A DNA stretch of 64,000 nt from an uncultured Syntrophomonadaceae bacterium (GTDB lineage Bacteria > Bacillota > Dethiobacteria > DTU022). Both the position numbers and the translations under genes were made by a program. Below are positions 2,716 to 58,488 of the stretch, piece by piece. The number at the start of each line of letters is the position of its first letter. Within the stretch, counting starts at the first letter, position 1. The notes below the pieces were generated by a model. That model did no database searches. It worked only from the letters and a program-made list of their open reading frames with translations, and was not told where the DNA came from. The stretch lies in NCBI GenBank assembly GCA_964492615.1, contig CAZBKZ010000002.1, positions 1,323-65,322 on the forward strand, in the 5' to 3' direction.

Positions 2716-3600
2716 CTAACGGATCGGGGTAAAGCCGAAAGCTTCTAATAAAGCAGCCCCTTCAGGACCTGTTAAAAAGTCCAGGTAGGCTTTAGCTTCA
2801 TCAACTGCCTTACTGCTCTTCATAACTGCGGCGGGATAAATAACCTGTCCGTCGGTCATCTCCTTGGTTGCCTGATCGACTACCTCAAGATTGGCGGCCT
2901 TGGCATCGGTGGAGTAGATCACTCCGCAATCAACAAGTCCCTCTGCTACCTGGGTTGTAACCTCCTTTACCGTTGAGGCATACGTGATCACCCCGGAGGC
3001 GGCCAGGGCCACTTCATCAAGGCTGTAGTATAATAATATTTTTGAAGTATATTGACCCACGGGAACATCAATATTGCCCATGGCCATTAAAATATCGCCT
3101 TCAATAAGGCGCGTGGCCAGTTCATCAAAACTGCCAATATTGCCGGGATTGCCGCCGGGCACTGCCAAAACTACCTTGTTTTCAAGGATGTTTTTACGGG
3201 TTTCTTCAAGGACAAAATCCAATTGACCTACATTGACTGCCGGGTCTGCGCTGATGTCAAGTTCATTCATTGCTTTTTGGGCGGCGGAAATATATACGTC
3301 GCAATTGGCGCCCTCTTCAATCTGGGTTTTAAGGGTTCCTGAGGAATCGAGGTTTGTAATAATCGTAACATGCGGGTTTGCCTCCATGTAGGCCCTGTTT
3401 ATTTCTTCAATTACTTCAGTCATGGAAGCAGCGGCGAAAACAATTAGTTCAACATCCTGCGCTTCGGGAGTAGTTACTTCGGGATCGGCATCTTCTGCAA
3501 GCTTGCTGTCCCGGATTACCACTTCATTTGTGCTACAGCCGGCAATGCTGAACAGCAGAAACAGTGCCAGCAAAACATAAAAGATTTTTTTATAGTTCAT
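2716..3600 (-). CDS. modA: Molybdate-binding periplasmic lipoprotein.
   Basis: ModA-family sequence. Start chosen at ATG 3598-3600 (MNYKK...), which has a GGAGG RBS. The lipobox is LFSIAGC. The longer ORF to 3648 lacks an RBS. Confidence 0.85.
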   Translation of the reverse strand: MNYKKIFYVLLALFLLFSIAGCSTNEVVIRDSKLAEDADPEVTTPEAQDVELIVFAAASMTEVIEEINRAYMEANPHVTIITNLDSSGTLKTQIEEGANCDVYISAAQKAMNELDISADPAVNVGQLDFVLEETRKNILENKVVLAVPGGNPGNIGSFDELATRLIEGDILMAMGNIDVPVGQYTSKILLYYSLDEVALAASGVITYASTVKEVTTQVAEGLVDCGVIYSTDAKAANLEVVDQATKEMTDGQVIYPAAVMKSSKAVDEAKAYLDFLTGPEGAALLEAFGFTPIR

Positions 3601-3615
3601 TACCGAACCTCCTGC

Positions 3616-3663
3616 AATATATATTCTTGTTCGAAAATATATTCTCAAATGAGAGTATATATT
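3616..3663. promoter_or_regulatory. Candidate ModE-type operator in the divergent modA / modE-like promoter region. It carries repeated ATATAT/TATATA motifs and an imperfect inverted repeat.
   Basis: AATATATTCTC..GAGAGTATATATT imperfect palindrome, with three ATATAT blocks between the divergent starts. Confidence 0.35.
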
Positions 3664-3772
3664 AAAAATTCCTGGCTGGCAATAATTAATTTGAAAAAAT
3701 TATTATTCATTGTTATGATCCAGTTAGGATATTGCATGTATTTTAGCTAAAATTATCTGTAGAGGTTGGAAA

Positions 3773-4129
3773 ATGTTGAATAAAATGCACCCAAAAACCA
3801 GGTTAACCATCTATAATGATTACAAGCCGGCAGCAAGGGGTTTCGGGCGCGGAATAGTCATGCTCCTGGATAATATAGAGAATACAGGATCTATTAAAAA
3901 AGCTGCCCGGACCATGGGAATGGCTTATTCAAAAGCTTGGAAGATGTTGACAGAGGTTGAGAAGGAATTTGGTATTAATCTGCTCAAGCGAGACGGGCAC
4001 AGGGGATCAACTTTAAGCCCGCAAGCCAAGCTGTTGCTTGATGCATATAAAAGTGCCTTGAAAGAGGTTGATGAAACCACCGAAAGCGCCTTTAAAAAAC
4101 ACTTTAAGGATCTGCGTTTTGATAGATAA
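3773..4129 (+). CDS. ModE N-terminal-domain-like winged-HTH regulator. It is short and has no Mop/TOBE domains.
   Basis: GSIKKAARTMGMAYSKAWKMLTEVE...LLKRDGHRGSTLSPQAKLL matches the ModE/LysR-type HTH domain. It is divergent from modABC. Confidence 0.75.
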   Translation: MLNKMHPKTRLTIYNDYKPAARGFGRGIVMLLDNIENTGSIKKAARTMGMAYSKAWKMLTEVEKEFGINLLKRDGHRGSTLSPQAKLLLDAYKSALKEVDETTESAFKKHFKDLRFDR

Positions 4130-4230
4130 GGATGATCGTTATTAAACCTGTAAAATCTGCTTGCTTTATTAGCTTTTCTAATCCTGCATAATGAATAATT
4201 ATATCTGACCGCATAAACAATGAAAGGTCT

Positions 4231-4256
4231 CTGCTATGTCAATATTGACATAGCAG
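4231..4256. promoter_or_regulatory. Perfect 26-bp palindrome CTGCTATGTCAATATTGACATAGCAG. It is either an operator or a terminator hairpin.
   Basis: Perfect inverted repeat about 100 nt downstream of the modE-like stop and about 780 nt upstream of the mop start. The downstream T-tract is weak. Confidence 0.5.
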
Positions 4257-5034
4257 CTATTATATGTTTTAATTGTTACGATTATAGATGTTTATTAAAC
4301 ACCTTGTAGGGTGAACTGTTGCTTGTTGGCCTGCCTGGTATTAATTAAAGCATAAAGAAGCAATGCAATAAGCTGCGAGTAACTAAATAAAAGAACGGTC
4401 ACTGCTAAACTGTGAAACATTCGAACTTCAGTTGCTTAAGCTGTTAGCTATGAACCGGAGATTTTGTGGTGTGGGATGAAACATCTAATTCTCCCGTTTC
4501 GGAAAGGGTGTTTAGTTTGTGGCCTAATATTGTTTCGTTTCAACTTGCGAAATTATTCACATGATACTCCTGTTGAAGGTTTTTACCTTTCGCAGGAGTT
4601 CTTGTTTTTATAAGGTATTTTGCTAAATCTTAACAGGGAGATTAGATCCTCTGAAAACATATTTCACAGTTGTTGGAAATATACATCAGGTGATTGTATG
4701 CTACAAACTGTGCTTAATTGCTCTCCAGGGTAACAGCCTTCATCTTGCTGATATGGAAGTGAGTAATAAAGCCGGCCAGGATAAAAGTTGGTGAGATGGC
4801 TAATTTTGCTGACAGAATCTGGTCAGAAAATTTCAGTTGCCTTTACTCTGTGAGCATGATGTTCAGCTGTTACGTATCTGACTAAGGGCTGGTTGTTTGG
4901 AGGAGCAGCCGGTATTTTTGATTTTGATTACAGTAAAGCTGTTTGGTTTAGTCCGGTTCTTTTTCTTGGAGAGGAGGAGATTGAACAAGTTATAAAGGCG
5001 ATGCAGTCACTAATTTAGGCGAGGAGATGAAAAA

Positions 5035-7752
5035 GTGCTAAAAAAAGTTATAACGGTAAATGGATTGGAAAGAACCCTAATTGTTGAGCCGGAAAGAAGT
5101 TTGGCAAGTGTTCTCAGGGAACAGCTTTTACTGACAGGCTGTAAAGTCGGTTGCAACCAGGGTCAGTGCGGGTGCTGTTCAGTGGTTCTTGATGGCGAGG
5201 TTGTCCGTTCCTGCGTAACGAAGATGAAGCGGGTACCTGATTATGCTGAAATTTGGACCATTGAGGGGATCGGAACCGCCCAAAACCTGCATCCCTTGCA
5301 GGTGGCCTGGATGGCCTATGGTTGTGCCCAGTGTGGTTTTTGCAGTCCGGGCTTTATCATGTCGGCCAAGGTTTTACTGGAGAAGAACCCCGATCCGACC
5401 AGGGAGGAAGTTAGAGACTGGTTCCAGAAAAACCGCAATGCCTGCCGTTGTACCGGTTACAAGCCGCTTGTTGATGCAGTGATGGCGGCGGCCAAGGTTC
5501 TGCGGGGCGAAATGCACAAGGAAGAGCTGCTCTACAAACCGGTGGGCAACAAAATTTACGGCACTAATTACCACCGTCCTTCGGCGATGCAAAAAGTTAC
5601 CGGAACCTGGGACTACGGCGCCGATGTAGCCTTGCAGATGCCCTCTGACACCCTGCGTCTGGCCCTGGTGCAGGCCGAAGTTTCACATGCAAACATCAAG
5701 GGTATTGATACATCTGAAGCGGAAAAGATGCCCGGTGTTTATCAGGTTATCACCCACAAGGATGTAAAAGGTAATAACCGGATTAATGGTATGGTTACTT
5801 TCCCCTCAAACAAGGGAGATGGTTGGGATCGCCCCATCCTTTGTGATGAAAAAGTTTTTCAATACGGTGACACCATTGCCATAGTTGCCGCCGATACGGT
5901 TGAGCATGCCAGGGCGGCAGCCAAAGAAGTTAAAGTGGATCTGGAAGTTTTACCTGCCTATATGAGCGCACCGGCGGCCATGGAGTCCGATGCTATAGAG
6001 ATTCACCCTGGAACTCCAAATGTTTATTTTGAGCAGGGTGTTGAAAAGGGAGAAGACCCGAAACCCTTCATGGAGAACAGCGATCTTGTAACTGTAGAGG
6101 TTAGCACGATCTGCAGCCGTCAGCCTCATCTAATGTTGGAACCAGACTGTGGTTCTGCCTATTTTGATGAAGAAGGACGGTTAACCATCCACTCCAAGAG
6201 TATCGGTATTTACCTGCACCGCGATATGATTTACGAAGGGCTGGGCATTGAGCCAGAAAATCTACGTATTGTGGCCAATCCCACCGGCGGCACCTTTGGG
6301 TATAAATTCTGCCCCACCAACGAAGCTTTACTCGGTGTGGCATGCATGGCTACCGGAAAACCAGTCTCTCTTGTATTTGACATGCACCAGACCATTACCT
6401 ATACCGGAAAACGCTCTCCCGGCTTTGTAACTTGCAAATTGGCTGCAGATAAGGAAGGTAAACTGTTGGCGATGGAGTCAGATTGGACCATTGATCATGG
6501 CCCGTACTCAGAATTTGGAGATCTACTGACCTTGCGCCTCGCTCAGTTTATAGGGGCCGGTTATGATATCCCCAATATTAAGGGTAAAGGACGCACAGTT
6601 TGTACTAATCACGCCTGGGGAGCCCCCTTCAGAGCCTACGGCTCACCGCAGTCTTTCCTGGCTTCTGAAACGGCAATGGATGAGTTGGCGGAAAAACTGG
6701 GCATGGACCCCTTCGACCTGCGCTTTAAAAACATCTATCGTCCCGGAGCGACCACACCGTCACAGCAGGTGCCGGATGTTTACTGTTTTGAGGATATGTT
6801 TAACAAGCTTAGGCCTCACTGGGAAGAAGCGAAAAAACGCTGCAGCGACTTTAACAAACTCGGAAAAAAACGTGGTGTTGGGCTTTCCCTTGGCATTTAC
6901 GGTTGCGGCACCGACGGCCCCGATACCTCGGAAATATTTGTGGAACTGACAAAAGAAGGGGTTACCGTTGGCAGCACCTGGGAAGATCATGGGCAAGGGG
7001 CAGATATCGGCACCTTGACCCATGCCCACGAAACCTTGCGTCAGGCAGGAATCAAGCCGGAGCAGATCAGACTGGTCATGAACGATATGGCCCTTTCACC
7101 CGATAGCGGCCCCTCAGGCGGGAGCCGGCAAAACCTGGTGACCGGTAATGCACTCAGGGTTGGCAGTGAAAGACTCATTGAAGCGATGCGTAAGGAGGAC
7201 GGAACATTCCGCACCTATGACGAGATGGTTGCAGAAAATATACCGCTACGTTATGAGGGTAAGTGGACTGCAAGCATGTGCACCATGTGTGATGCTGAAA
7301 AAGGGCAGGGGGATCCTTTTGCCGGATATGTTTACGAACTCTTTATGCCCGAGGTGGAAGTTGACCTTGAATCGGGCAAGGCAAAAGTGGTTAAGTTTAC
7401 CACGGTTGTAGACTGCGGCACCATTTCGAACAAGAGTGCAGTAGACGGCCAAATCTACGGAGGGTTGGCCCAGGGCATAGGTCTGGCTCTTTCCGAGGAC
7501 TTTGACGATTTGGAAGTTCACACTAACCTCCTGAAATGCGGACTTCCCTATATTAAGGATGTTCCCGATGACATGGAGATCATTTACAATGTTGAGCCGC
7601 GCCCCCATGGGCCTTATGGCGCTTCCGGAGTCGGTGAAGGCCCGTTGACCGCACCTCACCCGGCTATACTTAACGCAATCTATAATGCCTGCGGTGTCAG
7701 GATTTATGATATTCCAGCACTCCCGGAAAAGATTAAAGCCAAGCTTAAATAA
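5035..7752 (+). CDS. mop: Molybdopterin aldehyde oxidoreductase of the D. gigas MOP type: an N-terminal plant-type [2Fe-2S] domain fused to a xanthine-dehydrogenase-family Mo-MCD domain, with no FAD domain.
   Basis: GTG start with a GAGGAG RBS. Cys motifs CNQGQCGCCS and CAQCGFCSPGF. The a/b-hammerhead and Moco-binding regions are present. 905 aa. Confidence 0.85.
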   Translation: MLKKVITVNGLERTLIVEPERSLASVLREQLLLTGCKVGCNQGQCGCCSVVLDGEVVRSCVTKMKRVPDYAEIWTIEGIGTAQNLHPLQVAWMAYGCAQCGFCSPGFIMSAKVLLEKNPDPTREEVRDWFQKNRNACRCTGYKPLVDAVMAAAKVLRGEMHKEELLYKPVGNKIYGTNYHRPSAMQKVTGTWDYGADVALQMPSDTLRLALVQAEVSHANIKGIDTSEAEKMPGVYQVITHKDVKGNNRINGMVTFPSNKGDGWDRPILCDEKVFQYGDTIAIVAADTVEHARAAAKEVKVDLEVLPAYMSAPAAMESDAIEIHPGTPNVYFEQGVEKGEDPKPFMENSDLVTVEVSTICSRQPHLMLEPDCGSAYFDEEGRLTIHSKSIGIYLHRDMIYEGLGIEPENLRIVANPTGGTFGYKFCPTNEALLGVACMATGKPVSLVFDMHQTITYTGKRSPGFVTCKLAADKEGKLLAMESDWTIDHGPYSEFGDLLTLRLAQFIGAGYDIPNIKGKGRTVCTNHAWGAPFRAYGSPQSFLASETAMDELAEKLGMDPFDLRFKNIYRPGATTPSQQVPDVYCFEDMFNKLRPHWEEAKKRCSDFNKLGKKRGVGLSLGIYGCGTDGPDTSEIFVELTKEGVTVGSTWEDHGQGADIGTLTHAHETLRQAGIKPEQIRLVMNDMALSPDSGPSGGSRQNLVTGNALRVGSERLIEAMRKEDGTFRTYDEMVAENIPLRYEGKWTASMCTMCDAEKGQGDPFAGYVYELFMPEVEVDLESGKAKVVKFTTVVDCGTISNKSAVDGQIYGGLAQGIGLALSEDFDDLEVHTNLLKCGLPYIKDVPDDMEIIYNVEPRPHGPYGASGVGEGPLTAPHPAILNAIYNACGVRIYDIPALPEKIKAKLK

Positions 7753-7863: not shown

Positions 7864-10210
7864 ATGGATCATAATTATTTGCACGAGGTAGAGGCTAAAT
7901 GCACACAGGATCAGCAGCCAGGATGTGTGGCAGGTTGTCCTGTCCATGTTGACATTCCAGCATTGATTGCAGCTGTAAAAAAAAGGCGATTACTCGAAAG
8001 GTTTTGCCGTATTTAGAAAACATGTACCATTTCCCGGGATCATCAGCCATATTTGCAACCAGCCCTGTCAACTATCGTGCAAAAGGTCTGAGATAGATCA
8101 TCCTGTTGCAATTAATATCATGGAGCGGGTTTGTGTGCTGACTGGGGATGGCAGTTTGTCGGAAAGGTCGGGCGCCCTGCCGGTGAAAGAACGCAACAAA
8201 AAAGCAGCTGTTATCGGAGCCGGTTTAAGCGGCCTTACTGTTGCATGGGAGTTGGTAAAAAAGGGTTACCCTGTAACCATCTTCGAGCTTTCAGAACAGC
8301 CTGGAGGAAAAATTTTAAAAGAATCTGAAGAACGAATGCCGCGTCATATTATTGAAAAAGATTTTGCCCCGCTAATCAACAACTCCATGCTTGAAACCTG
8401 TTGGGGCTCCGGGGTTGGTGTCAGCGGCGGGATGGTTAACTTTGCCGATCTCCTTGCCCGTTATGATGCCATTTACCTAGGTACAGGTTCAAACTACGCG
8501 CTTCCTGCAGGGGTGGATCTCACCTTTGATGAGCAGGGGTTCCCCAGTCATGATCCAAAAACCCTGGCAACGGCAATTGACAAGGTCTTCATCGGCGGCA
8601 GCCTAATCCTGGAGAGCGAGAAAAGATCACCCATTGAATCAGTTAGCCATGGTAAAATAGCTGCTCTTTCTATTGACCGTTTCCTGCAGGGCGTATCACT
8701 GACTGCAGGGCGCTCACGAGAAGGGGCTTATGAAACCCTACTCTATACATCACTTAAAGGCATTTCCCCTGAACCTGTATATATTGAAGATCGACCGGGA
8801 GAATTACCAAATTCGGAACAAACTTTACAGGAGGCAAATCGCTGCCTTTTATGTACCTGCCTTGAATGTGTAAAGGCCTGCCCCTACCTGGAGCATTATG
8901 GGTCATACCCGAAAAAGTATGTCAGGGAGATTCACAATAACCTGATTATCATTAAAGGTGGGCGTGGCGCAAATGAAAAGATCAATAGCTGCAGTCTCTG
9001 CGGTTTATGTGCCGAAGTTTGTCCTGGCAATTTAGACATGGGCGAGTTTTGTTTCAAAGCCCGGAAGAAGATGGTCGAGACTGGCAAAATGCCCCCTTCA
9101 GCGCACGATTTTGCCTTGCAGGATATGGCATTCAGCACAAGTGAGCTGGTTGCCCTGCATAGGCACCAACCGGGTTTTAGCAAGAGCAGGGCCCTGTTTT
9201 TTCCCGGTTGCCAGTTAAGTGCTTCATCTCCACATTATGTAGGAAGGCTTTATACTTACCTGAGGGAAAAAATTGATGGTGGAGTTGGTTTGAGTCTCAG
9301 TTGCTGCGGCGCGCCTGCCCAATGGGCGGGCAGGGAAGACCTTTTTAATGAAAATATTGATTTACTGAAAAAAAACTGGACCGCATTAGGCAACCCGGCC
9401 ATTATTACCGGCTGCCCGACCTGCTTCAGTGTTTTCAGAAAGGTGTTGCCCGATCTGGATTGTGAGACAATCTGGACAGTTCTTGACCGGGTTGGCCTGC
9501 CAGAAAACAGCGGTGCCGGGGTTAAGATGAAAAAACTGGCTGTTCACGATGCCTGCACCACAAGGTACGACAAACCTCTGCAAAATAGTATTCGTAACAT
9601 TTTACTTGCTCTTGGGCACCAGGTACAAGAGCTTGAAAACAGCCGGGAGACAACAACCTGTTGTGGTTATGGCGGTTTGATGAGTTATGTTAACCGTGAG
9701 GTTGCCCGTAAAGTGGTTGAAAAGCGTATCGCCGAAAACCCTGAAGATTACCTGGCATACTGTGCCATCTGCCGCGACCATTTTGCGGCCCGGGGCAAAA
9801 GAACTTACCACCTTCTTGATCTCATTTTTGGCAGTTCTGACCACGACCTTGCAGGCGATCAAGGCCCTGGTTTTTCAAAACGCCAGGAAAACCGCTACCG
9901 CTGCAAGAAGAGCCTCTTAAAAAAAGTCTGGGGTGAAGAGATTCAAACCAGGGAGCCTGGCTTTGAACTGGCCATCAGCGCCGCCGTGCGCAGCAGCATG
10001 GAGGAGAGGATGATTCTTACCGGTGATATAATCGAAGTGATCAGTCATGCCCGCAGCAGTGGAAATGTAATGGAAAATACTGAAACAGGGACCATGGTCG
10101 CTTACTATAAACACCGCAACGTTACCTACTGGGTTGAATTCACCGTGGAAAACGAAAGTATCTATCACATTCAAAAAGCGTACAGCCACCGCCTAGTAAT
10201 TAAGGGGTAA
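7864..10210 (+). pseudogene. GltD-like NAD(P)H:FAD oxidoreductase fused to 2x[4Fe-4S] ferredoxin and HdrD/GlpC-like 2xCCG domains. It is interrupted by a +1 frameshift in an A8 tract at 7977-7984.
   Basis: ATG 7864 has a GGGAGAG RBS and encodes MDHNYLHEVEAKCTQDQQPGCVAGCPVHVDIP, the GltD N-terminal Fe-S motif. Removing one A joins it in-frame to ICNQPCQLSC...AVIGAGLSGL and so to ORF 8120..10210. Two CCG motifs are present (SCCGAP, TCCGYGG). Confidence 0.7.
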
Positions 10211-12703: not shown

Positions 12704-12741
12704 ATTATAGGTGAGTTTTGTAGCATTTCCTTATGACATTA

Positions 12742-12770
12742 TTGACATAATGATGGCATTGTGTTATATT
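12742..12770 (+). promoter_or_regulatory. Candidate sigma-A promoter upstream of fdhA: TTGACA-N17-TATATT with an extended -10 TGT.
   Basis: Near-consensus hexamers in an AT-rich intergenic region, about 240 nt upstream of fdhA. Confidence 0.4.
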
Positions 12771-13009: not shown

Positions 13010-16000
13010 TTGAAACGAAGGGATTTTCTTAAACTTACCGGAGTAACTGGCGCAGGCTTGCTCCTTACCGACCTTGGGTTTAACGCAGCGCCGGTTGAAG
13101 CCGCATCTCAAACGATCAGAATTCACAATTCAGAAGAATTTTATTCTGTTTGTACTTTTTGTTCTTGCGGCTGCGGGATGATTTGTAGCGTTAAAGATGG
13201 GAAAATGATTAACCTTGAAGGTGACCCTGATCATATCGTCAGTGAGGGGGCCCTCTGCAGTAAGGGGGCAGCTATGGCGGTAATGCCCAACTCTGATCAA
13301 CGGATCAGGAACCCTCTCTACAGGGCGCCGCGCAGCAACAAGTGGGAAGAAATCAGCTGGGAAGAAGCTATCGACAAGGTTGCCAGGAAATTTGTTGAAA
13401 CCAGGGACGATTACTGGATCAGCGATGAGACTATTGACGGTACCACTTATAAGGTTAACCGCTGCGACGCAGTTAGCTTCATGGGCGGAGCTCAAAACAA
13501 TACAGAGGAATCATATCTCCTTTCTAAGATGTCGAGAATTCTGGGCGCCGTGTATGTAGAGCACCAGGCCAGGGTCTGACACAGTCCCACGGTCGCCAGT
13601 TTAGGCGCCTCATTAGGACGTGGAGCTATGACCAATCACTGGGTTGATTTAAAAAATGCCAAGGTCTTCCTGATCCAGGGTAGCAATGCTGCCGAGAATC
13701 ACCCCATGGCAGTAAAATGGATGCTGGAAGCAAAGAAAAAAGGGGCAATCATTATTCATGTCGACCCCCGTTACACCAGGACCTCATCCATTGCCGATAT
13801 TCATGCCCAGATTCGTCCGGGTGCGGATATCGCATTTCTAAATTCAATTATTAACTACATTATTACCAATAACCTTTATGATGAAGACTTTGTTATTAAC
13901 CATACCAATGCGCTATTGATTGCCAACGAAGAATTCGATTACCAGGACGGCCTTTTTTCGGGCTATAATGACGGTAAATTCAGTTACACCAACCTTTCCT
14001 GGGGTTATACCCTTGATGAAGAAAGCAAGCCTATTAAGGCGGAAAGTCTCGATGATCCTCGCTCTGTCTTCAGCAAAGCCAAGGAATTCTTCAAGCGCTA
14101 TGATTTTAAGGTGGCTTCCGATATCTGCGGGGTTCCCGAGGAAAAGATCAAGCTAATTGCCGATACCCTGGTTAACAATAAGCCTGGAACAATCTGCTAC
14201 GCCCTGGGGATGACCCAGCATACTACCGGCGTTCAGGGGATTCGTTCTTTCGGTATTCTCCAAATGCTCTTAGGGAACCTGGGCAAGCCGGGCAGCGGTG
14301 TTAACGCCATGCGTGGTGAGCCCAATGTGCAGGGAGCAACCGATATGGCCATGTTGTTCCATATCATTCCCGGGTACCTGGCTGTTCCCAACCACGATGT
14401 CGTGGATCTTGATACTTGGACTTCGCGGACCGGTACTTTTCGCCGGACTTTTATGACCAGTATTCTCAAAGCGTGGTTTGGTGACCACGCCCAACCGGAA
14501 AATGATTTTTGTTTTAATTGGTTACCGAAAAAGAACGGGCGTGAAAACTACTCACTCTTCAGGATCTTTGAGACAGCCCTTGATAAAAAGATGAAGTTTC
14601 TCTATATCATGGGTCAGAACCCCATGGTTACCAACCCTAACCTGAACCTGGTGCACGAATCACTGGGCAACCTGGATATGCTGGTTTCTGTTGACCTCTT
14701 TATGACCGAAACCGCCGCTTTCTGGGAAAAACCGGGTGTGGATCCGAGTACGCTTGATACGGAGGTAATTTTCCTCCCTGCGGCCTCTTTCCTCGAAAAA
14801 GAAGGAACCCTGGTTAATTCAGGGCGGATGGTTCAGTGGCGCTATACCGGGATTAAACCGGTCGGCAATTCAAAAACCGACCTGGAGATCATTGATTTGC
14901 TTTTTAACCGCATCCGCGAGCTTTACCAGGGTTCAAGCGACAGCAAGGATGAGCCCATTTTAAAGGCCAACTGGAACTACGAAGCAGAAGATTCTCCCTC
15001 TTTCTCAGAGGAAGTATTGAAGGAAATCAACGGTTACAATCTGGCCACCGGTGAACTCTTAAAAGGGATTGGCGAACTTAAGCCTGACGGAACCACTGCC
15101 GCGGGGAACTGGCTGTATGCCGGAATCTTCGCCAACAACCAGAACCATTCCAAGCGCAAGGATAACATTAACGATCCCGGCGGCCTTGGCATCTATCCCG
15201 GCTTTGCCTGGACCTGGCCCGGAAACTGTCACGTCTTATATAATCGTGCGTCTTGTGATGCTGAAGGTAAGCCTTATGATGAAGCCAATAAGTGTATCTG
15301 GTGGGATGAGGAAAAGGGTATGTGGACCGGGTATGACACTCCCGACGTGCCGAACAGGAACGACGGACCCGATACACCCAACGGCAAAAGACCCTTCCGG
15401 ATGGCCGGGGAAGGTCTCGCCCGTATTCTTGCCGGGCCCTACCAGGATCCCTTTGCCAATCAGCTTCTGCCCAGGGATTCATCAAGCGTCCCTGCCGACG
15501 GCCCGCTTCCGGAGCACTATGAACCCTTTGAGAGCCCTACAGAAAACGTTTTGCATCCCAACGTCCCAGTCAACCCCTGTGTTAAGTATCCCCGAATTCC
15601 GGATAAGCAGCCAATCGGTACGGCAGCGGATTACCCCTACGTTCTCTGTACATCAAGCATGGCAGAGCACTGGTGTGCCGGGACTCAAACCCGTAACATG
15701 CCCTGGTTAAACGAACTGCAGCCAGAAACATTTATTGAAATACCGAAAAACCTGGCTGCCGAAAAGGGCATCAAGAATGGTGACTGGGTAAAAGTCTGGT
15801 CTGCCCGGGGCGAAGTTGAGGCCAAGGCCCAGGTAACCCACCGTATCCATCCCCTTAAAATTAACGGCAAGGAGGTTGATGTGGTCTGGATGCCGTATAA
15901 CTGGGGATACAAGGGCCTTAGTCAGGCTGCCAGCACAAACTATGTGACTATTGATGCAGGCGATCCGAATACCTGGATCCAGGAAACAAAGTGTTGTCTG

Positions 16001-16021
16001 GTAAACCTGGATAAGGCTTAA
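13010..16021 (+). CDS. fdhA: Formate dehydrogenase catalytic (alpha) subunit. It is a selenoprotein (in-frame UGA = Sec at 13577-13579) with a Tat signal.
   Basis: Twin-arginine signal MKRRDFLKLTGV. Fe-S motif CTFCSCGCGM. Track ORFs 13010..13579 and 13628..16021 are in the same frame and are joined by HQARV-U-HSPTVASLG, the classic Sec motif. The molybdopterin domains follow. Confidence 0.9.
13591..13609 (+). ncRNA. Bacterial SECIS upper stem-loop for fdhA (cis-acting mRNA element).
   Basis: Hairpin GGUCGCC-AGUUUA-GGCGCC with a bulged U. It begins exactly 11 nt 3' of the UGA, the spacing seen in E. coli fdhF. A GU is present in the apical loop. Confidence 0.55.
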
Positions 16022-23129: not shown

Positions 23130-23507
23130 TTACTTAATCGGTATATCATTAAAATGCTTCTCGTATAGTTGGTCTACGGCATTAATAGATTCTTCCTTAA
23201 AAGCTATGTATGCTCTCACCAGTTTTCTTGCGGTATCTGTTAGCTCTGAACCACTTTGCGATCCTCCGATATGTTTATCAATTAATTTAAATCCCAAGGT
23301 TTTTTCAGTAGCAGTTATTTTCCCCCATGCTGCCCGGTAAGACATGCCAAGTTTTGCAGCAGCCTTATTAATCGATCCGCATTCTTCGATTGCCTGAAAT
23401 AAGGCCAGTCGTCCTCCTCCGAAAATAACCTGTTTGTTGTATTCAATCCAGATTTTACACCTGGGCTGCAGCGATAGCTTTTTAACTATTTTCTTTTTAT
23501 CTTCCAA
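23130..23507 (-). CDS. Second ModE N-terminal-like winged-HTH regulator with no Mop domains.
   Basis: GSINKAAAKLGMSYRAAWGKITATEKTLGFKLI is homologous to the HTH in 3773..4129. Confidence 0.7.
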   Translation of the reverse strand: MEDKKKIVKKLSLQPRCKIWIEYNKQVIFGGGRLALFQAIEECGSINKAAAKLGMSYRAAWGKITATEKTLGFKLIDKHIGGSQSGSELTDTARKLVRAYIAFKEESINAVDQLYEKHFNDIPIK

Positions 23508-23824: not shown

Positions 23825-23857
23825 GGAGGGAAAATTTTTAAGGTCATTATGTCTATC

Positions 23858-23886
23858 TTGACATAATGTAAATTTTTCATTATAAT
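23858..23886 (+). promoter_or_regulatory. Perfect consensus sigma-A promoter TTGACA-N17-TATAAT upstream of moeA paralog 2.
   Basis: Exact consensus hexamers with a 17-nt spacer, about 80 nt upstream of the moeA2 start. Confidence 0.6.
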
Positions 23887-23968
23887 TTATTGACCCTTTA
23901 ATTATTTTACTATAATTAAGAAAATTAACAATATAATATTATATTCATGATTAATAATACAATAATAA

Positions 23969-29414: not shown

Positions 29415-29666
29415 GAATAGGGTTAATACTTTATTCTTATATTTAAGATTCTTTAATGCTATTTTGCAAAGTTGAGAACCGCTTTTGGAAACACTCTGTT
29501 TTATAGACCTGTTTTAGCTTGTAATAATAACTTTTTGCGGGGTTCTGAAGAATTTACCTGTTGGCATATTAATTGCTCTTATTTCGCTATGGAGGAATAG
29601 TAATTTCTTTTCGTGAAAGGGTTTTTATGCGTTATTATTATAAACTGAGAGGAGCAGTTGAGTATT

Positions 29667-31019
29667 ATGGACCAGTATAAAGAAGCGATGGATTATGCCG
29701 GTCGCTGGCTGGGAATCATCAATTGTGAAGAGCTCGATGAATCGACAGCCCAGCAGATTTCTAAAGAGACGGTTGATAATTTTGTCAATCACTTTAACAA
29801 GGGTTGGGTAGACTATCGTAAGTCGGTTACAGAGGCCGGTGATTATGCAGGCACGGAATGGCGGGGACATGGTATTTATTATTATGATGTCTTTGGCCAG
29901 GAATATATCGACTGCCTGGGTGGTTACGGCGCACTTGACCTTGGCTGGTCGCATCCTGAAGTGGTTGAGGCTGTCCGGGCTCAGGCAGGAAAATCAGGTA
30001 TTCCAAGCCAGGAACTGATGGATCCTCTACGGGGCGTGCTGGCCAGGTTACTGGCCCAAATTACTCCGGGTGATATTGACCATTCATTTTTTGTCAATAG
30101 CGGCACTGAAACTATCGAAGGAGCACTGAAAATAGCCAAGCTATATACCGGCAAGCACAATTTTATCTCCACTGTATCTGCCTTTCATGGAAAAACCCTC
30201 GGTTCACTGAGTGTTATGGGTAAAAAAGACTACCGCGAAGCCCTTCAGCCTTTTGGCGGTCAAACTTTTTATGTTCCCTTCGGGGATGCGGAGGCTCTTG
30301 AAAAACAGCTTGAAATTTGTGCAAAAGTAGGTATTGATATCGCTGCATTTATAGCTGAGCCGATTCAGGGAGAAGCAGGAGCAATAGTCCCTCCCGATCA
30401 TTATTGGCCGAAAGTCAGAGAAATATGCAGTCGCTATGAAATACTGCTTATTTGTGATGAAGTGCAAACCGGTATGGGTAGAACCGGAAAACTCTGGGGA
30501 GTTGAGCACTGGGATATTGTCCCTGATATACTGTGTGTGGCTAAATCACTAGGCGGAGGGCTGATGCCGATGGGAGCCTTCATGGGTAGCGGCAGAATAT
30601 GGAGCGCTTTTGAAGATCCAAACCCCTTTATACATACAACAACAACTGGGGGCAATCCAATGGCATGCGCGGCAGCAATAGCTGCTATTAATGTAACCCT
30701 GCGCGACAAACTACCTGAAAAAGCTGCCGAGCTGGGCGATTATTTTATAGGCAAACTGAATGAATTTGCAGAAAAGTATCCTCAGGTATATAAAGGGATT
30801 ACCGGTAAAGGACTTCTAATCGGGCAGCACTTCCAAGCTCCCGAAATTGGTTACCAGGTGGCTGCCGGGCTGTTTAAAAGGAAAGTCCTGGTAGCAGGAA
30901 CTCTGATCAGCGCCAATACTGTTCGCTTTGAACCGGCCCTGATTATCACCCGCGAACAAATTGATGAAGTGCTTAATCGCCTTGATGATGTATTGCAGGA
31001 AGTGATAAAAAAACTTTAA
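29667..31019 (+). CDS. Class-III PLP-dependent aminotransferase (omega-aminotransferase family).
   Basis: Class-III signatures including the DEVQTGMGRTG motif. ATG 29667 preferred over TTG 29658 on RBS spacing. Confidence 0.8.
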   Translation: MDQYKEAMDYAGRWLGIINCEELDESTAQQISKETVDNFVNHFNKGWVDYRKSVTEAGDYAGTEWRGHGIYYYDVFGQEYIDCLGGYGALDLGWSHPEVVEAVRAQAGKSGIPSQELMDPLRGVLARLLAQITPGDIDHSFFVNSGTETIEGALKIAKLYTGKHNFISTVSAFHGKTLGSLSVMGKKDYREALQPFGGQTFYVPFGDAEALEKQLEICAKVGIDIAAFIAEPIQGEAGAIVPPDHYWPKVREICSRYEILLICDEVQTGMGRTGKLWGVEHWDIVPDILCVAKSLGGGLMPMGAFMGSGRIWSAFEDPNPFIHTTTTGGNPMACAAAIAAINVTLRDKLPEKAAELGDYFIGKLNEFAEKYPQVYKGITGKGLLIGQHFQAPEIGYQVAAGLFKRKVLVAGTLISANTVRFEPALIITREQIDEVLNRLDDVLQEVIKKL

Positions 31020-44699: not shown

Positions 44700-46295
44700 T
44701 TGAAAGTACTGGTTAGCGATCCTCTATCCAAGGAAGGGATTCAAATACTGGAGGAACATGTGGAAGTGGATGTCAAACCTGACATATCACCCGCTGATCT
44801 TGTTTCTGTAATAGGAGAATATGACGGGTTGGTTGTTCGCAGTCGCTCTAAAGTTACGGCGGAGGTAATCGAAGCCGCAGGCAACTTAAAAGTAATCGGA
44901 CGCGCCGGGGTTGGCGTTGACAATATTGATGTGGATAAAGCCACTGAAAAAGGGATTATTGTCTTGAATGCTCCGCACGGCAACACCATCTCAACAGCAG
45001 AACACGCTATTGCAATGCTGACATCACTGGCCCGCAATATTGCCGGGGCGAGCTGTTCAGTTAAGAAAGGTGAATGGAATCGTTCCTCGTTTACCGGGGT
45101 AGAGCTAAACAAAAAAACTCTAGGTATAATTGGGTTGGGACGTATCGGCAGTGAAGTTGCCCGACGAACCAGGGCTATGGGCATGAAAATTATTGCTTAT
45201 GATCCTTACGTGACAGCCGAACAGTCTGAAAAACTGGGAGTGGAGAAGGTGTCATTTGAGGAGCTTATCGGAAATGCAGATTTTATTACACTGCATTTGC
45301 CGATGAGTTCAAATACCCGCCACCTTATCGGAGAAAAAGAATTCAACATGATGAAAACGGGAGTCAGGATCATTAACTGTGCCCGCGGGGGACTGGTTGA
45401 TGAAAATGCTCTCTGCCGGGCAATCAAGGAGGGTAAAGTCGCCGGTGCTGCCCTCGACGTTTTTGAAAAAGAGCCTCCTGCGGGTTGTGAGTTTTTAGAT
45501 TTTGACAATGTAATCGTAACCCCCCACCTTGGAGCACTGACCAGGGAAGCCCAGACCAATGTTGCGCTCCAGGTTGCCGAACAGGTAGTTAAAGCCCTTC
45601 AGGGAGAGCCAATTGTTTCTGCAGTAAATGTGCCGGCCTTGATGCCTGAAGCTAAAGCTGCCCTGGAACCTTACCTGCCTTTGATGAAGGTTATGGGAAG
45701 CTATTACCTGCAAATGTTTGGCGGCCAGGTTGATGAAATTGAGCTGATTTACAGTGGCGAGGCATCAACTTTGCATCTTGCTCCACTGACAATATCCTGC
45801 CTGATCGGGTTTCTCAGGCATATCGTCGGTGATGGAGTAAACTGGGTAAATGCTCATTACATAGCTAAAGCCAGAGGAATCGATGTCAGAGAAGTATCGA
45901 CCACAGAGGTTAAAAATTACAGCACCCTGATTAAGATGATAGGGCGTTCGGGCCAGGAAGAACACCTGATCTCTGGCACCCTGCTTAATAATGAAATGCG
46001 TCTGGTCAGGATTGATGATTTCAGGATTGAAATAGTTCCATCCAAGTATACCCTGATGACTACTCACCATGATCGCCCCGGGGTAGTAGGGAAGCTGGGA
46101 ACCCTTCTGGGTGGTAAAGAAGTTAATATTGCTTCGATGCAGCTCGGCCGTAAGGCGGCTGGCGGAGAAGCGATGATGGCTCTACAGGTTGATAATGATA
46201 TAAATGAAGAAACTATGGAAAAGATAAGAGATCTGGATCTTTTCGATACGGCACAGTTTGTGGTAATCGAGAATAGTATCCCCGGAGTGAAATAA
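44700..46295 (+). CDS. serA: D-3-phosphoglycerate dehydrogenase with a C-terminal ACT domain.
   Basis: MKVLVSDP start (TTG 44700, GGAGG RBS at 8 nt). 2-hydroxyacid dehydrogenase motifs GLGRIG. Confidence 0.85.
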   Translation: MKVLVSDPLSKEGIQILEEHVEVDVKPDISPADLVSVIGEYDGLVVRSRSKVTAEVIEAAGNLKVIGRAGVGVDNIDVDKATEKGIIVLNAPHGNTISTAEHAIAMLTSLARNIAGASCSVKKGEWNRSSFTGVELNKKTLGIIGLGRIGSEVARRTRAMGMKIIAYDPYVTAEQSEKLGVEKVSFEELIGNADFITLHLPMSSNTRHLIGEKEFNMMKTGVRIINCARGGLVDENALCRAIKEGKVAGAALDVFEKEPPAGCEFLDFDNVIVTPHLGALTREAQTNVALQVAEQVVKALQGEPIVSAVNVPALMPEAKAALEPYLPLMKVMGSYYLQMFGGQVDEIELIYSGEASTLHLAPLTISCLIGFLRHIVGDGVNWVNAHYIAKARGIDVREVSTTEVKNYSTLIKMIGRSGQEEHLISGTLLNNEMRLVRIDDFRIEIVPSKYTLMTTHHDRPGVVGKLGTLLGGKEVNIASMQLGRKAAGGEAMMALQVDNDINEETMEKIRDLDLFDTAQFVVIENSIPGVK

Positions 46296-58044: not shown

Positions 58045-58488
58045 ATGAAATTATCCGCCAGGGTTGAATATGGTGTCAGGGCAATGGCTGTGCTGGCTGT
58101 TCAATATCCGGCCGGTCCGATATCATTACGCGAGGTCGCTGAAAGGGAAAATATTTCTGTAAAATTTCTTGAACAAATATTTCCCGACTTGCGCAAGGCG
58201 AACCTGGTTATAAGCCTGCGTGGATCACGCGGTGGTTACGCCCTGTCTCTTTCACCCGGCGAGATTAGAGTTGGCGATATTGTCAGGGCTGTAGAGGGGC
58301 CGATAACCCCGGTAAACTGCCTTGATGAAGATCACAAAGGCCCCTGTCTACACGATAGGAGCGCCTGCTTAACCAGGCAGGTTTGGAAAAAACTGCGTGA
58401 CAGGATAAATGATTTTTTAGACGAGGTAACTTTGGTTGAGCTGATTGAGACAAAACAGGTAGCACAGATAAATGGTGGGGAGGTTTAA
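58045..58488 (+). CDS. iscR: Rrf2-family transcriptional regulator (IscR-like, with three Cys cluster ligands).
   Basis: Rrf2 HTH (ISLREVAERENISVKFLEQI). Cys residues in CLDEDHKGPCLHDRSAC. Confidence 0.8.
   Translation: MKLSARVEYGVRAMAVLAVQYPAGPISLREVAERENISVKFLEQIFPDLRKANLVISLRGSRGGYALSLSPGEIRVGDIVRAVEGPITPVNCLDEDHKGPCLHDRSACLTRQVWKKLRDRINDFLDEVTLVELIETKQVAQINGGEV

Follow-up and report, generated by a model that had tools for sequence, protein, structure and literature searches.

Why should the gene for a molybdenum (Mo) enzyme stand almost a kilobase away from its upstream neighbour? The question is posed by a 64,000-nucleotide (nt) stretch of DNA from an uncultured Syntrophomonadaceae bacterium (GenBank assembly GCA_964492615.1, contig CAZBKZ010000002.1, positions 1,323 to 65,322; hereafter the window), in which mop, the gene for a Mop-type molybdopterin-dependent aldehyde oxidoreductase of 905 amino acids (aa) (5035–7752, plus strand; NF045668, 1610 bits), follows ModE-like-1 (3773–4129, plus strand), which encodes a 118-aa protein consisting of a ModE N-terminal winged helix-turn-helix domain only, without the molybdate-binding domain. 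Between the end of the upstream open reading frame (ORF) at 4129 and the GTG with which mop starts at 5035 lies a gap of 905 nt (4130–5034). An earlier note on this DNA had drawn attention to the length of this gap and to the absence of any ORF of 60 aa or more, and both observations hold, the largest ORF on either strand being 49 aa. The gap is the longest seen between large ORFs of the window, and its GC content is 37.5%, against 44.6% for the window as a whole. Here we propose, with a probability of roughly 0.6, that the gap holds the mop promoter and a 5′ leader of about 755 nt, and that it exerts two-layer control related to Mo or tungsten (W). What we observe is a set of sequence features with their statistics, the conservation of RNA helices, the recurrence of an operator-like motif and the same design in another leader; from these we infer the start site, the binding protein, the sign of regulation and ligand binding.

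The upstream part of the gap contains a perfect 26-bp palindrome, CTGCTATGTCAATATTGACATAGCAG, at 4231–4256. It had been singled out in the earlier note and proves to be the longest of the 64 kb, a length of 26 bp having been reached in only 1 of 200 block shuffles. Inside its right half sits the −35 box of a σ70-type promoter on the plus strand (4245–4273), composed of TTGACA at 4245–4250, a 17-nt spacer with TG at 4265–4266, and the −10 box TTTAAT at 4268–4273. With 11 of 12 consensus matches plus the TG, this is the sole near-consensus promoter in the gap; the remaining candidates reach 8 of 12 or, in the case of a second register at 4236 within the palindrome itself, 9 of 12. The promoter lies about 755 nt upstream of the mop start codon and would initiate transcription at about 4280. 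For comparison we fetched 80 loci with homologues of the oxidoreductase, the best of them 81% identical. A σ54 promoter element (TGGCAC-N5-TTGCW) is present in the relatives L001, L003, L006, L007, L011 and L013, and is absent from the gap, also when the pattern is relaxed.

In the palindrome we recognise a copy of a recurrent motif, cATTATGTC-N6-GACATAATg. Allowing at most one mismatch, the core ATGTC-N6-GACAT occurs 6 times in the window against 1.43 expected, a count reached in none of 100 shuffles, and at 5 of the 12 TTGACAT sites in the window the matching left half is also present, spaced exactly as the palindrome requires. Among the intergenic copies the best three, at 4234 (mop), 12731 (the selenocysteine formate dehydrogenase alpha gene, Sec-fdhA) and 23847 (moeA), share a common layout of box, −35 within the right half, 17-nt spacer and −10, the last being TTTAAT, TATATT and TATAAT, respectively. 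The copy ahead of Sec-fdhA (TTATGACATTATTGACATAA, 12731–12750) overlaps the −35 of TTGACA-17-TATATT; that between moeA and the gene for a second ModE-like protein, ModE-like-2 (TTATGTCTATCTTGACATAA, 23847–23866), supplies with its right half the −35 of TTGACA-17-TATAAT, and precedes moeA and, divergently, the ModE-like-2 gene. At 12742 and 23858, these two copies reproduce the box/−35/−10 geometry found at 4245. A weaker copy (CTGTCCATGTTGACAT, 7938–7957) lies between mop and the following gene. Another, at 44770, is probably a chance occurrence within a coding region, in a gene that we take to be serA-like from its N-terminal sequence rather than from a family search.

Two paralogous regulators are candidates for binding such a box. 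ModE-like-2 (23130–23507, minus strand; 125 aa) also consists of a ModE N-terminal domain only and is 32% identical to ModE-like-1. In loci of ModE-like-2 homologues (63–82% identity; nine contigs, 105 kb) the full motif was found in 8 of 9 cases, ahead of fdh-like genes, moeA, mobB and the regulator gene itself, including divergent promoter regions. The core matches 15 times in these 105 kb, compared with once in 381 kb around ModE-like-1 homologues (80 metagenome loci, 42–49% identity), and no TATGTC-N6-GACATA with up to two mismatches was found in those 80 loci. Because the motif recurs in loci of ModE-like-2 homologues and not in those of ModE-like-1 homologues, we tie it to ModE-like-2, which is more probably its binder than the adjacent ModE-like-1 and is in any case the better-supported candidate. 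That the motif recurs in front of Mo-related genes and close to those encoding ModE-domain regulators points to the palindrome being a copy of a ModE-family operator variant. The idea in the earlier note that the gap contains a binding site for the adjacent ModE-like regulator is therefore upheld in part: the palindrome matches a conserved operator-like motif, but the motif is not specific to the adjacent gene, and the evidence favours the paralogue. The sole mop locus that also carries a ModE-like gene, L043, has no relevant palindrome.

The motif is related to, and distinct from, the known ModE box. The Escherichia coli consensus is ATCGNTATATA-N6-TATATANCGAT (PMC545781). Both are 9+6+9 inverted repeats with a common T-A-T-n-T core, found in a Mo-gene context beside genes for ModE-domain proteins, whereas the half-site in the window is ATTATGTC (motif ATTATGTC-N6-GACATAAT), with TATGTC in place of the TATATA of CGnTATATA. 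The candidate cognate proteins in the window also differ from E. coli ModE in having no Mop or molybdate-binding domains. ModE-N-only proteins are known, and how they sense metal has been described as an open question (PMC545781). In the proposed first layer of control, a dimer of such a protein, more probably ModE-like-2, would bind the palindrome, occlude the −35 box and repress transcription; repression by occlusion is suggested because the box is centred near −37 on a consensus promoter.

A different kind of box lies on the other side of ModE-like-1. Two overlapping TATAT-rich 11-N6-11 palindromes at 3616–3663 (3616–3626/3633–3643 and 3636–3646/3653–3663) occupy the divergent modA/ModE-like-1 promoter region, where they overlap the −10 and start region of the minus-strand modA promoter (3682–3654). 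They look like the E. coli-type ModE box and are distinct from the ATGTC-type box of the same window. The two paralogues may have separate boxes, and those at 3616–3663 may be the site of whichever paralogue does not bind the ATGTC-type box. Downstream of the moeA operator and promoter (23847–23886) there is also a 16-bp perfect AT palindrome, AATATAATATTATATT, at 23930–23945, some 25 nt short of 23969, where the longest ORF for moeA starts. Outside the window, the ATGTC-N6-GACAT core is found ahead of mop, moeA-like or Sec-fdhA-like genes in L051 (3649), L052 (1822), L054 (2559) and L078 (3830), which are Desulfomonilaceae, Syntrophobacter-type and other deltaproteobacterial metagenome-assembled genome (MAG) loci; this suggests that the ATGTC-type operator family crosses phyla.

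Further into the putative transcript, the plus strand at 4407–4526 matches RF01055 over the full model (1–135) as a divergent aptamer of the molybdenum cofactor/tungsten cofactor (Moco/Tuco) riboswitch family, with helices P1, P2, P4 and P5 and without P3. The match has an E value of 0.061 in a search of 1.6 kb on both strands against 4227 families, or about 1e-5 for this family alone, and is the sole RF01055 match in the 64 kb. The earlier note had envisaged a Moco- or tungsten-cofactor (Wco)-sensing riboswitch here and had proposed a cmscan with the Moco RNA model over 4130–5034. That search does return a full-length match, although with a score below the curated cut-off, and Rfam at its gathering thresholds gave no matches in the window. 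As an independent test we turned to the relatives, in which Rfam found bona fide aptamers in 3 of the first 14 mop-homologue loci. A model made from these aptamers (R1) harvested 16 aptamers, from which a second model (R2) was rebuilt with the window left out. R2 matches 4413–4519 over model positions 1–106 (E 3.4e-5 in 1.6 Mb; 6.8e-8 locally). Beyond this match and the true members, it found nothing at E ≤ 1 in the 1.6 Mb, and in a control of 381 kb of unrelated ModE-like loci it found no match at E ≤ 1. No second aptamer was detected in the leader by R2 with filters off.

The helices themselves bear out the match. Of the 34 pairs in the model, 29 form in the window aptamer, within the members' own range of 28–32: relative to the consensus, 11 pairs are identical, 4 are changed on one side, 14 are changed on both sides and still paired, and 5 are broken. 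P1, P2, P4 and P5 can thus all form, with compensatory changes, and P3 is missing both here and in all aptamers of the related mop loci. The aptamer is on the mop strand, upstream of the gene, and about 40 nt after it comes an intrinsic terminator, T1 (4566–4611, plus strand; ACTCCTGTTGAAGGT/TTTT/ACCTTTCGCAGGAGT, then TCTTGTTTTTAT), with a hairpin of −23 kcal/mol, a U tail and fold z-scores of −3.2 to −3.7. Terminators follow the relatives' aptamers within 20–50 nt, and T1 is the probable expression platform of the window aptamer. On this comparative evidence, 4407–4526 is very probably a true homologue of the RF01055 family. Routine annotation misses this copy, which lies under the Rfam cut-off and emerges through its context, an independent model and compensatory changes. 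The riboswitch suggested in the earlier note is thereby borne out as regards a significant full-length match to both models, compensated helices and a terminator, but the copy is sub-threshold and its core is altered.

The P3-less class of Moco RNAs has been linked to Tuco, the tungsten cofactor (PMC2408646; PMC11725836), and genes behind a P3-less aptamer and terminator rise under tungsten limitation (PMC11725836). With this class (Regulski et al. 2008, PMC2408646; E. limosum, PMC11725836) the window shares the P1-P2-P4-P5 architecture without P3, the CUCCC...GGAAAGG core, a terminator platform and a co-oriented position upstream of a gene for a pterin-cofactor enzyme. The relatives show an OFF-switch design, in which the terminator's 5′ arm has complementarity to the P1 3′ strand (AAGGAGA/UCUCCUU). 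In the proposed second layer, the RNA would present the aptamer about 130 nt into the transcript, followed by T1, and by analogy with the relatives and the published cases cofactor binding would favour termination and switch mop off. Elsewhere, an Anaerolineae MAG locus (L068) carries tandem P3-less aptamers at 3464–3575 and 3687–3798, directly ahead of mop.

Both layers have precedents on a single transcript. The closest is a mobB leader (L172; metagenome contig ERZ18327520 k141_72957, features at 7191–7206 and 7128–7022, minus strand), in which the parts come in the same order: first an extended palindrome sharing the core, with the −35 in its right half, next the −10 and a P3-less aptamer, and finally a terminator ahead of a Mo-related gene. 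There, the palindrome overlaps TTGACA-18-TATAAT and the canonical P3-less aptamer scores 80 bits. Unlike that of the window, this aptamer is canonical, begins ~35 nt into the putative transcript and is separated from the start codon by 122 nt, and the L172 leader has neither a second hairpin nor a long spacer. In E. coli, ModE control is combined with a Moco RNA at moaA (PMC2408646, PMC11672702), the ModE-family site lying at the promoter of the moaABCDE operon and the cofactor-sensing RNA downstream of it on one transcript. In the window, however, the regulator is a DNA-binding domain only, and its box overlaps the −35, which suggests repression in contrast to the activation of moaA by ModE; the P3-less aptamer is coupled to a transcription terminator, whereas E. 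coli uses sequestration of the ribosome-binding site; and the target is a cofactor-using enzyme rather than a biosynthesis operon.

Several observations weigh against this two-layer account. The RF01055 score is 20.6 bits, short of the gathering cut-off of 36 bits, which is an operational threshold for database-wide searches and not a structural feature; the R2 score of 29.5 bits is far under the 58–88 bits of true members. Among the near-invariant columns 23 of 34 are kept and 11 differ. When the near-invariant core (CCGA, GCCUCCC and GGAAAGGA) is compared, CUCCC...GGAAAGG is kept, CCGA has become UCGA (as in L068) and GCC has become UUC; the invariant G-C pair beside CUCCC is replaced by U.U. 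The tetraloop and its receptor are altered as well: the G of the GAAA tetraloop is absent, leaving a shortened P4 loop (AUG-AAA-CAU), and in the P2 bulge the 11-nt receptor CCUAAG/UAUGG reads GCUUAAG/UAUGAA. A GNRA tetraloop with its receptor is typical of the family and not obligatory, because a few accepted Moco RNA members have lost both together (PMC2408646). The P1 3′ strand and the terminator 5′ arm are only weakly complementary in the window compared with the relatives, minimum-energy folds of the leader show no clean antiterminator, and the aptamer lies 515 nt from the start codon, against about 190–300 nt in the relatives. The leader is 99.9–100% identical in all available contigs with the same genes, which leaves no within-lineage covariation to draw on, and no mop homologues with identities between 81% and 100% were found. 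On the side of the operator, ModE-like-1 remains a candidate binder, since the homologue loci without the motif are only 42–49% identical to it. Finally, the two layers do not account for the last ~420 nt of the gap (4612–5034), for which we found no homologue in the 80 mop loci or the rest of the window.

This terminal segment holds a second terminator-like hairpin, T2 (4888–4929, plus strand), which is G-U-rich and ends in the tail ATTTTTGATTTTGATT, the surrounding interval 4810–4929 having a fold z-score of −2.8; taken across 4612–5034, fold z-scores are not significant. It also holds a purine block, GGAGAGGAGGAG, at 4968–4979 (plus strand), which is Shine-Dalgarno-like but is not followed at a suitable distance by a start codon that could be used, and a second block, GGAGGAG, at 4899–4905. 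Three mini-ORFs come near mop (TTG AAC AAG TTA TAA, 4981–4995; ATG CAG TCA CTA ATT TAG, 5001–5018; ATG AAA AAG TGC TAA, 5027–5041), so the purine blocks and short ORFs reported in the earlier note are all present, with poor spacing between the two (1 nt or about 21 nt). The translation start of mop itself comprises the Shine-Dalgarno sequence GAGGAG at 5021–5026 and the GTG at 5035 (5021–5037, plus strand), which is the sole in-frame start beyond the stop at 5011. CUUUUUC at about 4957–4963 could pair with GAAAAAG at this start codon. A gap of comparable length has been described in Syntrophomonas wolfei, behind its third P3-less aptamer (PMC2408646). More generally, blastn and nhmmer searches with the leader against the 80 mop loci and the rest of the window returned only the self-match and the palindrome's match to itself.

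How do these weaknesses bear on the aptamer? That it is an evolutionary relic which no longer binds ligand or switches, leaving mop to the operator and promoter or to a weak downstream promoter, we consider unlikely. The low score, the loss of near-invariant bases including tetraloop and receptor, the weak P1/terminator complementarity and the long distance to mop are what a decayed switch would show, and weak promoter candidates do exist past T1 and T2, such as TTGATT-17-TTTAGT at 4924–4952. Those candidates score just 8 of 12, however; family members without tetraloop and receptor are known (PMC2408646); a strong terminator still stands at the usual distance; and the retention of 14 pairs through changes on both sides, with 5 of 34 broken, argues for continued selection on the fold. 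On balance, we put the odds that the window aptamer still switches slightly above even. That non-coding, AT-rich DNA produced the match by chance, and that the gap is a plain long spacer, is disfavoured and highly improbable: the score is under the curated threshold, but two independent models place the match at the same position and strand over the full length, the E value for the family is about 1e-5, about 1.2 Mb of control DNA gave no comparable false match, and the context fits, with a molybdoenzyme gene downstream and a terminator in between. Divergence could also have another meaning. The lost tetraloop-receptor clamp, the U.U in place of G-C and the rebuilt P1 may reflect a specificity variant of the Moco class for another pterin species or metal state. 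Alongside this, or in its place, 4612–4930 with T2 could be an undescribed second sensor, which would give the mop leader two RNA inputs beneath a ModE-type repressor of minimal domain content. We regard these readings as improbable.

The palindrome and the terminal segment invite rival explanations of their own. Lying 100 nt past the stop codon of ModE-like-1 and forming an 11-bp hairpin that our terminator scan flags as terminator-like, the palindrome could be mainly the intrinsic terminator of that gene, its likeness to other copies then coming from a shared −35 box rather than from a protein site. Its T tail, CTATTATATG, is poor, though; 5 of 12 TTGACAT sites have the left half-site with precisely the palindromic spacing, the other copies would form weak RNA hairpins and are not placed after genes, and the motif is conserved in the relatives' regulator loci, divergent promoter regions included. 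This reading is accordingly quite improbable, but as the two roles are not mutually exclusive, the palindrome may double as a terminator hairpin for ModE-like-1. A second, undescribed regulatory RNA in 4612–4930, with T2 as its platform, would make the leader a two-input one and would be compatible with our proposal. In its favour are the T2 hairpin with its T-tract and the local fold z-score, and the relatives' mop and moeA-like leaders do carry a second conserved terminator/antiterminator element, in L005 after a Moco aptamer. That element is absent from the window, and 4612–4930 has no Rfam match and no homologue in the fetched data, with fold z-scores that are unremarkable over most of its length; we consider this second RNA rather unlikely. 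Leader-peptide attenuation, raised in the earlier note, gains no support from the leader. The 29-codon ORF at 4796–4885 does stop 3 nt before the T2 hairpin and purine blocks do lie ahead of the mini-ORFs, but the Shine-Dalgarno spacing is wrong for every candidate (0–1 nt or about 21 nt), and there are no runs of regulatory codons, no demonstrable conservation and no alternative hairpins linked to the ORFs. We give such attenuation very little credence.

A remnant of lost genes was rejected as an origin of the gap. In the relatives, mop is preceded by genes for a 341-aa MoeA-like protein and a σ54 activator of about 670 aa; tblastn with both proteins gave no matches at E ≤ 10 in 4130–5034.

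The two-layer proposal does not overturn current understanding; the design is a known one, here unusually far diverged and drawn out. A presumed W-cofactor-class aptamer ahead of a Mo-type oxidoreductase would fit the published idea that availability of the W cofactor may turn a Mo enzyme off. For ModE-N-only proteins, the predicted operator cATTATGTC-N6-GACATAATg ahead of formate dehydrogenase, moeA, mobB and aldehyde oxidoreductase genes offers a testable regulon.

The relatives' leaders contain an element of their own. In [moeA-like]-mop operons of diverse Firmicutes, we found AAAAAGGAAUACAGUGC, a variable hairpin and then GCAAAGCGCUGGUUUCUUUU..GCGCUUUGCUUUUU, at L001 3761–3853, L002 2796–2882, L003 2769–2862, L005 2811–2900, L006 2771–2859, L007 2750–2846, L008 2677–2764, L009 3789–3879, L012 2763–2845, L013 3807–3894, L014 3811–3897, L016 2774–2864, L028 2284–2377 and 5715–5807, and L030 104–195. 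It lies downstream of a σ54 promoter in at least L001, L003, L006, L007 and L013, and in L005 downstream of a Moco aptamer. The element can form two mutually exclusive helices, both about 90% paired: one is a terminator that shows a degree of covariation, and the other joins the 5′ box over a long range to the 5′ arm and loop of the terminator. It matched no Rfam family and may be an undescribed attenuator or riboswitch. A covariance model of it (R3; AAAAAGGAAUACAGUGC ... GCAAAGCGCUGGUUUCUUUU ... GCGCUUUGCUUUUU) scores 62–89 bits in 14 relatives and has no match in 4100–5100 of the window with filters off. Upstream of the σ54 promoters of the relatives' mop operons are repeated GTGTTACC...GGTAACAC palindromes (L001 ~3524–3583, L003 ~2528–2587, L006 ~2464–2517, L007 ~2502–2551, L013 ~3590–3656), which are probably sites of the adjacent σ54 activator and belong to a regulatory scheme absent from the window.

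Around the gap, the window carries a Mo island at about 0.8–25.3 kb, made up of modABC, ModE-like-2 and the copies of the operator motif. The modABC-type transporter operon lies upstream of ModE-like-1 in divergent orientation. The assignment of ModE-like-1 draws on matches to Pfam HTH_1, to TIGR00637 (41.8 bits, under its cut-off) and to PDB 2IJL (E 2e-5). A bacterial selenocysteine insertion sequence (SECIS; RF01989) at 13574–13632 (plus strand; 49.4 bits, cut-off 63, E 2.5e-8) sits at the junction of ORFs 13010–13579 and 13628–16021, which jointly encode the selenocysteine formate dehydrogenase alpha subunit through UGA read-through. Farther along, a partial, sub-cut-off match to the cspA 5′-untranslated-region thermoregulator (RF01766; 57730–57808, plus strand; 33 bits, E 7.5e-5) precedes ORF 58045–58488, and a σ54-type promoter, TGGCATATTAATTGCT, at 29562–29577 (plus strand) is followed after about 80 nt by a putrescine-aminotransferase-like gene (29658–31019).

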